A DNA stretch of 64,000 bases from Escherichia coli (GTDB lineage Bacteria > Pseudomonadota > Gammaproteobacteria > Enterobacterales > Enterobacteriaceae): the NCBI RefSeq assembly GCF_036507355.1, contig NZ_AP027877.1; one strand, written 5' to 3'. The first letter of the stretch is position 1. The number at the start of each line of letters is the position of its first letter. This document shows, in pieces, positions 27,984 to 30,557 of this stretch. The position numbers were made by a program, and so were the translations under genes. A model generated the notes under the pieces. That model worked only from the letters and a program-made list of their open reading frames with translations, did not search any database and had not been told where the DNA came from.

Positions 27984-30557
27984 ATGTCACGGAAGACCGT
28001 TTCACGTACTTTTTCTTCCTTTTCTATCTCTGTGGTGGCGGTTGCTGTTGCCAGCACGTTTTCTGCACATGCCGGAAAGTTTAACCCCAAATTCCTGGAG
28101 GACGTTCAGGGTGTGGGCCAGCATGTCGATTTAACGATGTTCGAAAAAGGCCAGGAACAGCAGTTACCCGGCATCTATCGTGTCTCTGTTTACGTCAATG
28201 AACAGAGAATGGAAACCCGCACACTGGAATTTAAAGAGGCCACAGAAGCACAGCGCAAAGCGATGGGGGAATCCCTTGTGCCTTGCCTTAGCCGGACGCA
28301 ACTGGCAGAGATGGGCGTGCGCGTTGAAAGCTTTCCGGCCCTCAATCTGGTGCCTGCCGAAGCCTGCGTACCGTTTGACGAAATCATTCCCCAGGCCTCA
28401 AGCCATTTCGACTTCAGTGAACAAAAACTGGTATTAAGTTTCCCTCAGGCGGCGATGCATCAGGTGGCGCGTGGCACGGTGCCGGAATCTTTATGGGACG
28501 AAGGTATCCCTGCGTTGCTGCTGGATTACAGTTTTAGCGGGAGCAACAGTGAATATGACTCCTCTGGTTCTTCCAGCAGTTATGACGATGATAATGGTGC
28601 CATTCATCATGATGACGGCGACAATACGCTAAAGAGCGACAACTACTACCTCAACTTACGCAGCGGGCTGAACCTTGGCGCTTGGCGGTTACGGAATTAC
28701 AGTACCTGGAGCCATTCCGGTGGTAAAGCGCAGTGGGATAATATCGGTACGTCTTTGAGTAGGGCCATCATCCCTTTCAAAGCGCAATTAACGATGGGGG
28801 ATACGGCGACCGCGGGGGATATTTTTGACAGCGTTCAGATGCGTGGCGCGATGTTAGCCTCTGATGAAGAGATGCTGCCCGACAGCCAGCGAGGCTTTGC
28901 ACCCATCGTTCGAGGGATCGCCAAAAGCAACGCCGAAGTCAGTATTGAACAAAACGGCTACGTTATTTATCGCACCTATGTGCAGCCTGGTGCCTTTGAA
29001 ATAAACGATCTTTACCCCACTGCAAACAGCGGTGATCTCACGGTCATTATTAAAGAAGCGGATGGCAGTGAACAACGCTTTATTCAGCCATTCTCATCGG
29101 TGCCAATTTTCCAGCGTGAAGGCCATCTCAAATATAGCTTTGCCCCAGGTGAATATCAGGCCTGGAATTATGACAGCGCCTCGCCGCGTTTCGGGCAGCT
29201 TGACCTGATCTACGGTTTACCGTGGGGGATGACGGCCTACGGCGGCGTATTAATCTCTAATAATTACAATGCATTTGCATTAGGGATAGGGAAAAACTTT
29301 GGTTATATCGGGGCGATTTCTATCGATGTGACGCAGGCGAAAAGCGAACTGAATAACGATCGCGATAGCCAGGGACAATCTTATCGTTTCTTATATTCCA
29401 AGAGCTTCGAAAGCGGCACCGATTTCCGCCTTGCGGGCTACCGATACTCTACCAGTGGTTTCTATACCTTTCAGGAAGCCACCGATGTGCGCAGTGACGC
29501 CGACAGCGACTATAACCGTTACCACAAGCGCAGCGAAATACAGGGTAACCTGACGCAGCAATTAGGGGCCTATGGCTCTGTTTATTTAAACTTAACGCAG
29601 CAGGATTACTGGAACGACACAGGTAAACAGAACACGGTATCGGCGGGTTATAACGGACGTATTGGTAAGGTCAGTTACAGTATTGCGTACAGCTGGAGTA
29701 AAAGCCCGGAATGGGATGAAAGCGATCGCTTGTGGTCTTTCAATATTTCCGTTCCGCTGGGCCGGGCCTGGAGTAACTATCGCGTCACGACCGACCAGGA
29801 TGGTCGCACCAATCAACAGGTTGGGGTCAGCGGCACGCTGCTTGAGGATCGCAACCTGAGCTACAGTGTTCAGGAAGGCTACGCCAGCAACGGTGTGGGT
29901 AACAGCGGTAATGCTAACGTTGGCTATCAGGGCGGGTCCGGTAATGTCAACGTAGGCTATAGCTACGGCAAAGATTACCGGCAGCTCAACTACAGCGTTC
30001 GCGGCGGCGTGATCGTTCACAGCGAAGGCGTCACGCTTTCCCAGCCGCTAGGCGAAACCATGACGCTCATCTCCGTGCCCGGCGCGCGCAATGCTCGCGT
30101 GGTGAATAACGGCGGCGTTCAGGTCGACTGGATGGGTAACGCGGTTGTGCCTTACGCCACGCCTTATCGTGAAAACGAAATCTCACTGCGTAGCGATTCG
30201 TTGGGTGACGATGTTGATGTTGAAAATGCATTCCAGAAAGTGGTGCCGACGCGTGGGGCGATTGTCAGAGCGCGTTTTGATACCCGTGTTGGTTACCGCG
30301 TATTAATGACGCTGCTCCGTTCCGCGGGCAGTCCGGTGCCCTTTGGAGCAACGGCAACGCTAATCACCGATAAACAAAACGAGGTGAGCAGTATCGTTGG
30401 TGAAGAAGGACAGCTCTATATTAGCGGAATGCCAGAGGAAGGACGGGTATTGATTAAATGGGGTAATGACGCGTCGCAGCAATGCGTGGCGCCTTATAAA
30501 TTATCCCTGGAATTAAAACAGGGCGGAATTATTCCTGTTTCGGCCAATTGCCAGTAA
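27984..30557 (+). CDS. lpfC: Outer-membrane fimbrial usher
   Basis: 857-aa uninterrupted ORF with usher features and C-terminal Cys pair. Confidence 0.9.
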   Translation: MSRKTVSRTFSSFSISVVAVAVASTFSAHAGKFNPKFLEDVQGVGQHVDLTMFEKGQEQQLPGIYRVSVYVNEQRMETRTLEFKEATEAQRKAMGESLVPCLSRTQLAEMGVRVESFPALNLVPAEACVPFDEIIPQASSHFDFSEQKLVLSFPQAAMHQVARGTVPESLWDEGIPALLLDYSFSGSNSEYDSSGSSSSYDDDNGAIHHDDGDNTLKSDNYYLNLRSGLNLGAWRLRNYSTWSHSGGKAQWDNIGTSLSRAIIPFKAQLTMGDTATAGDIFDSVQMRGAMLASDEEMLPDSQRGFAPIVRGIAKSNAEVSIEQNGYVIYRTYVQPGAFEINDLYPTANSGDLTVIIKEADGSEQRFIQPFSSVPIFQREGHLKYSFAPGEYQAWNYDSASPRFGQLDLIYGLPWGMTAYGGVLISNNYNAFALGIGKNFGYIGAISIDVTQAKSELNNDRDSQGQSYRFLYSKSFESGTDFRLAGYRYSTSGFYTFQEATDVRSDADSDYNRYHKRSEIQGNLTQQLGAYGSVYLNLTQQDYWNDTGKQNTVSAGYNGRIGKVSYSIAYSWSKSPEWDESDRLWSFNISVPLGRAWSNYRVTTDQDGRTNQQVGVSGTLLEDRNLSYSVQEGYASNGVGNSGNANVGYQGGSGNVNVGYSYGKDYRQLNYSVRGGVIVHSEGVTLSQPLGETMTLISVPGARNARVVNNGGVQVDWMGNAVVPYATPYRENEISLRSDSLGDDVDVENAFQKVVPTRGAIVRARFDTRVGYRVLMTLLRSAGSPVPFGATATLITDKQNEVSSIVGEEGQLYISGMPEEGRVLIKWGNDASQQCVAPYKLSLELKQGGIIPVSANCQ

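Follow-up and report, generated by a model that had tools for sequence, protein, structure and literature searches.

What is the acidic, serine-rich stretch in the usher of the long polar fimbriae of Escherichia coli, and does it have a function of its own? The question arose from a stretch of 64,000 nucleotides (contig NZ_AP027877.1 of the E. coli assembly GCF_036507355.1; hereafter the window, at its full length), which carries lpfC, the outer-membrane usher gene of the lpf1 (long polar fimbriae) operon. A preliminary description made from the letters of the DNA had drawn attention to residues 185-215 of LpfC as an unusual insert in the N-terminal region of the usher, and had suggested that it could be a lineage-specific linker, a metal-binding loop or a hypervariable region. 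The analysis described here argues that the stretch is probably an elongated extracellular loop, loop 1, which joins the first two strands, β1 and β2, in the 24-stranded translocation barrel of LpfC and would be flexible, surface-exposed and weakly constrained.

The 857-residue product of lpfC is a chaperone-usher outer-membrane usher of the FimD/PapC family, as judged by the order of its domains and the layout of its barrel. Pfam finds PapC_N (PF13954, residues 32-185), Usher (PF00577, 222-765, E = 6e-216) and PapC_C (PF13953, 774-841) in that order, and the whole protein reaches 1712 bits with the NCBIfam LpfC equivalog NF011754, for which the cut-off is 1271; this model has 842 positions, the length of a short-loop protein. 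The closest solved structures are those of FimD (E about 1e-225 with phmmer), and a Foldseek search with the LpfC model gave 3rfz_B as the first match (E = 2.6e-85), the top matches being FimD and PapC. Of 5426 complete E. coli genomes, 422 carry lpfC, with a nucleotide identity to the window gene of 95-98.4%.

Translation confirmed the sequence originally read for residues 185-215, SGSNSEYDSSGSSSSYDDDNGAIHHDDGDNT, which corresponds to nucleotides 28536-28628 (the end first given for it, 28632, lies 4 nucleotides beyond). The stretch contains 9 Ser, 7 Asp, 4 Gly, 3 Asn and 2 His, and its net charge of -8 is the most negative of all 31-residue windows in LpfC. The proportion of Asp, Glu and Ser (55-58%) is likewise the maximum for the protein. 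Ser or Asp occupies 16 of the 31 positions, against an LpfC-wide frequency of 0.165 (binomial tail 7e-6; corrected for the number of windows, about 0.006), and the Shannon entropy is 2.86 bits, compared to a median of 3.63. The lowest-entropy stretch of LpfC is a different one, the Gly/Asn/Ser/Tyr-rich residues 626-665 (about 29859-29978); these align well to FimD and are predicted to form barrel strands, and so represent a conserved family feature.

The place of the acidic stretch in the usher fold was analyzed with an AlphaFold2 model of LpfC, built from a 79-sequence alignment (mean predicted local distance difference test score, pLDDT, 80), in which strands were assigned with the program DSSP. 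The predicted barrel has 24 strands spanning residues 177-679, with a plug region (294-381) between β6 (285-293) and β7 (382-391) and a helix (496-503) between β13 and β14. The acidic stretch falls between the first two strands:

27984-30557, + strand: lpfC, outer-membrane usher of the lpf1 operon, an intact open reading frame of 857 residues.
28512-28556, + strand: predicted barrel strand β1, residues 177-191 (DSSP on the AlphaFold2 model; pLDDT 88-94 in the blocks covering 171-190).
28542-28646, + strand: putative extracellular loop 1, the β1-β2 connection that holds the acidic, Ser-rich stretch, residues 187-221 (35 residues), between the conserved anchors LLDYSFSG and YLNLRSGLNLGAWR.
28629-28676, + strand: predicted barrel strand β2, residues 216-231 (DSSP on the AlphaFold2 model).

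In PapC and FimD, the connection between β6 and β7 holds the plug, and the helix between β13 and β14 acts as a cap from the extracellular side (PMC4356140), while the usher N-terminal domain is periplasmic (PMC12122975). Because the LpfC model matches this layout and the N-terminal domain is periplasmic, the odd-to-even strand connections, including β1-β2, should be extracellular. We infer that the acidic stretch belongs to extracellular loop 1, on the outer side of the barrel, because it is sited between β1 and β2 and because of the published usher topology. The pLDDT values within the loop are 51-63 in the blocks spanning 191-220 and fall below 50 at 195-198 and 208-213, which suggests that the loop is flexible. 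A mini β-hairpin is predicted within it, with strands 199-201 and 207-209 around D202-D203-N204-G205 (pLDDT about 50-56).

The preliminary description had assigned the stretch to the N-terminal region of the usher, and had proposed structure prediction as a check for a disordered loop between the N-terminal domain and the barrel. A disordered linker from the periplasmic N-terminal domain to the barrel might indeed be imagined, since the Pfam domains leave residues 186-221 unassigned (PapC_N ends at 185 and Usher begins at 222) and the pLDDT of the segment is low. However, strand β1 precedes the stretch and β2 follows it, so that it is predicted to lie within the barrel, and the alignment with FimD leads to the same place: residues 199-218 (20 residues) of the query lie opposite a gap that is internal to the translocation domain crystallised for FimD (query 162-683 against 3ohn_A 1-540). 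The actual linker that leads from the N-terminal domain of LpfC into its barrel is found elsewhere, at about residues 153-176. The original N-terminal placement must accordingly be revised, and the inter-domain linker, which we consider very improbable, was dropped because the stretch connects two barrel strands and not two independently folded domains.

The length of loop 1 can be compared across ushers as the distance between two anchors, ...Y-x-F-S-G (L-L-D-Y-S-F-S-G in the window protein) and Y-L-N-L-x-x-G-x-N-x-G-x-W-R (here Y-L-N-L-R-S-G-L-N-L-G-A-W-R). By this measure loop 1 is 35 residues long in the window LpfC, 14 in FimD and 19 in the LpfC of Salmonella. Of the 120 90%-cluster representatives closest to the window protein, almost all have a loop of 9-21 residues. 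Among 142 full-length ushers that each represent a cluster at 50% identity, 140 have 9-19 residues; the loops of the other two, with 39 and 76 residues, have sequences unrelated to the LpfC insert. The window loop thus exceeds those of FimD, Salmonella LpfC and almost all other ushers by about 16-20 residues. Independent lengthening of loop 1 was observed in ushers P0032 (51 residues), P0204 (39) and P0311 (76), with sequences unlike the LpfC insert, and this position of the usher barrel seems to be generally permissive to insertions.

FimD, the type 1 pilus usher (PDB 3RFZ, 3OHN, 6E14, 9BOG), is about 45% identical to the window LpfC, with the same fold and the same loop 1 anchors; its β1-β2 connection consists of the 14 residues NSVQNRIGGNSHYA, and LpfC is 20 residues longer there. 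Salmonella enterica LpfC (P0011, the γ1-fimbrial usher) is much closer, at 70% identity, and shares the domain architecture and the NCBIfam equivalog. The flanks of the loop, SN-x-x-Y-D... and ...SDSY, are common to the two proteins, but the 19-residue Salmonella loop lacks a 16-residue centre that in the window protein bears a Y-x-D-x-x-G turn. The suspicion that the stretch is atypical for FimD/PapC-type ushers is therefore borne out by the gap against FimD, by the Pfam-unmodelled position and by a length outside the usual 9-19 residues. Alignment with FimD and other LpfC proteins, which had been suggested as a test, found that the segment is not conserved across characterised ushers.

The long loop is not restricted to E. 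coli. Loops of 34-35 residues occur in E. coli, in E. albertii (P0004, 79% identity) and in nine more cluster representatives, down to 62% identity, and so are common to one LpfC clade, in agreement with the idea of a lineage-specific feature. One of the most distant members (P0024, 62% identity) is encoded in a five-gene lpfABCDE-like operon at another chromosomal site. In a neighbour-joining tree made without the loop columns, long loops occupy all basal branches of the LpfC clade as well as the E. coli/E. albertii branch, and the 19-residue loop is found in a nested Salmonella/Enterobacter subclade. The simplest history would be one gain at the base of the LpfC clade followed by one deletion of 16 residues (about 199-214) in the Salmonella/Enterobacter branch. 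Two features within the loop are defined by these alignments:

28578-28625, + strand: 16-residue segment of the long-loop LpfC clade, absent from Salmonella/Enterobacter LpfC, about residues 199-214, SYDDDNGAIHHDDGDN (MAFFT alignment A2; the gap could equally be set a few residues to either side).
28581-28598, + strand: conserved turn core Y200-D201-D202-D203-N204-G205, at the tip of the predicted mini β-hairpin (alignment A3 and DSSP on the AlphaFold2 model).

Alignment A3 comprises 12 long-loop ushers; all of them have Y200 and G205, nearly all have D202, and the remainder of the loop is polar or charged and unconserved. Only the overall length and the Y-x-D-x-x-G turn are conserved. The mean pairwise identity of loop 1 in this set is 37%, compared to 69% elsewhere, making it the lowest 35-residue window of the protein. 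The original impression of a low-complexity or disordered segment is thus correct as to the acidic, Ser-rich make-up, but a purely low-complexity or disordered segment is not what is found, since the length is held at 34-35 residues and the turn is conserved. A profile search with A3 of a collection of 5.8 billion proteins was uninformative, as it returned only short fragments of 62-148 residues and no further full-length long-loop ushers.

The variability of the loop is also evident within E. coli. The lpf1 LpfC of other E. coli (yhjX-lpfABCDE-eptB) is the same gene at the same chromosomal position, with the same operon order and the same 35-residue loop, and eight lpfC alleles (the window and seven genomes) were compared. 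Nucleotide diversity peaks in loop 1 (0.0745, against a gene mean of 0.026), and 8 of the 31 variable residues of LpfC are located there. The ratio of non-synonymous to synonymous differences per site (pN/pS) is 0.29-0.40 in loop 1 and 0.03-0.04 in the remainder of the gene; because the region-wide value does not exceed 1 among these eight alleles, diversifying selection is not demonstrated. The window and O157 alleles differ at 73 nucleotides, of which 15 lie within a span of 114 nucleotides (P = 6e-7). E. coli lpf1 has two main types of loop allele. The window carries the minority type, YDDDNGAIHHDDGDN, which is matched with at least 99% identity over 181 nucleotides in 27 of the 422 genomes, whereas the common type, which includes that of O157, is YVDDNGTVHHDDGKD; 385 of the 422 genomes have just 91.7% identity to the window over the 181 nucleotides around the loop, compared to 97.2% over the whole gene. 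The differences are substitutions and not insertions or deletions; the loop keeps one length in all eight alleles, and each of the 422 genomes can be aligned across it. The proposal of a hypervariable region is supported in that loop 1 is the most variable part of LpfC both between species and within E. coli.

These results are consistent with a model in which loop 1 forms a short β-hairpin that stands out from the pore rim at the cell surface, carried on tethers that are flexible, polar, acidic and Ser-rich. The catalytic cycle of the usher, which involves the periplasmic domains and the plug, would not need the loop, so that it would be tolerated rather than required; in Salmonella, Lpf fimbriae are reportedly built with an LpfC in which the segment is missing, which would favour this view. 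The loops of outer-membrane β-barrels such as porins and OmpA point outward and are polar or charged, poorly conserved and tolerant of insertions and deletions, while their strands are conserved. LpfC loop 1 resembles them in these respects, but differs from such loops in general by keeping its length and a three-residue turn motif across a deep clade. Exposure to the outside would leave the loop to evolve under weak purifying selection, possibly with some immune or phage pressure, and its fast evolution could be explained because it is both exposed and weakly constrained. At most, loop 1 might modulate the extracellular mouth of the pore, affecting the seat of the emerging fibre on the barrel rim or contacts with lipopolysaccharide (LPS). 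A modest role of this kind is plausible, given the restraint that the rim of the barrel and the extracellular loops are reported to place on the pilus rod in FimD (PMC12122975).

Several observations weigh against a wholly exposed and dispensable loop. The extracellular placement is based on strand parity and published topology, and the mini-hairpin is itself uncertain owing to its low pLDDT. Synonymous differences are also raised in loop 1 (pS 0.18, against 0.05-0.11 elsewhere), and the variation may thus derive partly from old allele classes or from a small recombined patch, and not from relaxed selection alone. Finally, conservation of length across the deep clade, together with the three kept residues, implies more constraint than expected for a purely dispensable loop; the conserved length and turn suggest, from sequence comparison, that loop 1 is not entirely free of constraint.

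What other explanations might account for such a stretch? One is a divalent-metal site, which would bind Ca2+ or Mg2+ (for example, as a bridge to LPS phosphates) or Zn2+ or Ni2+ (via the His pair) and stabilise or gate the usher. The net charge of -8 and the adjacent HH pair invite this reading, and EF-hand/DxDxDG loops follow a consensus in which position 1 is Asp, positions 3 and 5 are Asp, Asn or Ser, position 6 is Gly, position 8 is hydrophobic and position 12 is acidic. When compared by eye, the E. coli sequence Y-[V/D]-D-D-N-G-[A/T]-[I/V]-H-H-D-D fits positions 3, 5, 6, 8 and 12. However, position 1 is Tyr200 and not Asp, and the ligand candidates that follow the D-x-x-G are unconserved in the clade, the residues there being IPQTQTQSG in P0018, IGKTRTQNG in P0023 and IEQHDSS in P0004. 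Candidate ligands differ even within E. coli (D210Y, D213N/K), and the segment is absent from Salmonella LpfC. An EF-hand-like calcium loop was rejected as a conserved feature, since positions 8 and 12 fit the E. coli alleles only and position 1 is Tyr. Conservation thus lends the suggestion of a metal-binding loop no support: past the turn, acidic residues and His are missing from some clade members and vary within E. coli. We regard a metal site as decidedly unlikely. A hypermutable or phase-variable simple-sequence contingency locus was also considered, prompted by runs of Ser codons and of GAY codons in the DNA. Tandem Repeats Finder detected nothing with a score of at least 30, and the only direct repeats are two of 10-11 nucleotides, a size expected by chance; scans of nucleotides 28300-28900 for tandem, direct and inverted repeats found nothing meaningful. 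With no tandem repeats and no length polymorphism (one loop length in the eight alleles, with the 422 genomes all alignable across it), slippage was dropped as an explanation and has next to no probability.

Another reading is a surface loop that serves as an antigen or a phage receptor and is subject to diversifying selection, so that its variation would be adaptive. Its location would be extracellular (as judged from topology), its variability is the highest in the protein both within and between species, and the two E. coli allele classes are distinct, with synonymous and non-synonymous divergence both raised. Opposing this, the loop pN/pS for the region as a whole is well under 1 in the eight alleles, the length and turn are conserved, and ushers are low-abundance proteins; we consider adaptive variation unlikely. 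A more specific function can be imagined for the Y-x-D-x-x-G hairpin, which might form a lid or collar at the mouth of the Lpf usher (for example, through cation-dependent contact with LPS or with the LpfA fibre) and so set the exit geometry of the fibre or the sealing of the pore, or might act as a receptor for a phage or bacteriocin. Such a function is highly unlikely in our estimation; if it were true, the loss of the segment in Salmonella would be adaptive. We know of no ligand, phage or antibody interaction of LpfC loop 1. Literature searches on LpfC found no description of the loop, and PMC9238391, PMC4636846 and PMC11459180 do not mention it. The elongated, weakly constrained extracellular loop 1 remains the explanation that we favour.

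The operon around lpfC is complete in the window, in the order lpfA-B-C-D-E and flanked by yhjX and eptB, which is the gene order of lpf1. Annotated E. coli chromosomes are collinear with this locus, with identities of up to 98.7% across 20 kb. In addition to lpfC, the locus contains:

26680-27204, + strand: lpfA1, major fimbrial subunit (NCBIfam LpfA equivalog, 337 bits against a cut-off of 221; the RefSeq annotation of the collinear locus L010 is concordant).
27269-27955, + strand: lpfB, periplasmic chaperone (NCBIfam LpfB, 441 bits against a cut-off of 360).
30572-31627, + strand: lpfD-like tip or minor subunit (top NCBIfam match LpfD, 325 bits, under the cut-off of 412; labelled only 'fimbrial protein' in RefSeq).
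31632-32162, + strand: lpfE, minor fimbrial subunit (NCBIfam LpfE, 292 bits against a cut-off of 169).

The LpfD-like subunit (30572-31627) is far more diverged from Salmonella LpfD than LpfA, LpfB, LpfC and LpfE are from their counterparts. The window lpfC is intact, unlike the O157:H7-type gene (FDAARGOS_293, L004 501-3074), which is interrupted by a stop at codon 368 and carries a pseudogene annotation. Elsewhere in E. coli, lpfD has an internal stop in PapRG-04-4 (L007, 4673-5381) and is truncated beside a transposase in O169:H41 (L006, 4673-5381). Decay of the lpf1 operon appears to have been independent in several E. coli lineages. A different change is found in E. coli O145 RM10425-C1 (L001), where an in-frame deletion of 6 nucleotides (lpfC nucleotides 2230-2235, about window 30213-30218) removes LpfC residues 744-745.

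The gene lpfC is already known and routinely annotated, and outer-membrane barrels commonly have long, variable loops that face outward, so that loop 1 is a minor anatomical detail with little importance past annotation. It nevertheless provides a clean length marker that separates LpfC of the E. coli/E. albertii type from that of the Salmonella/Enterobacter type, and it distinguishes two allele classes of lpf1 within E. coli. As a naturally permissive and probably surface-exposed position, loop 1 is also a candidate site for epitope insertion or surface labelling of ushers.

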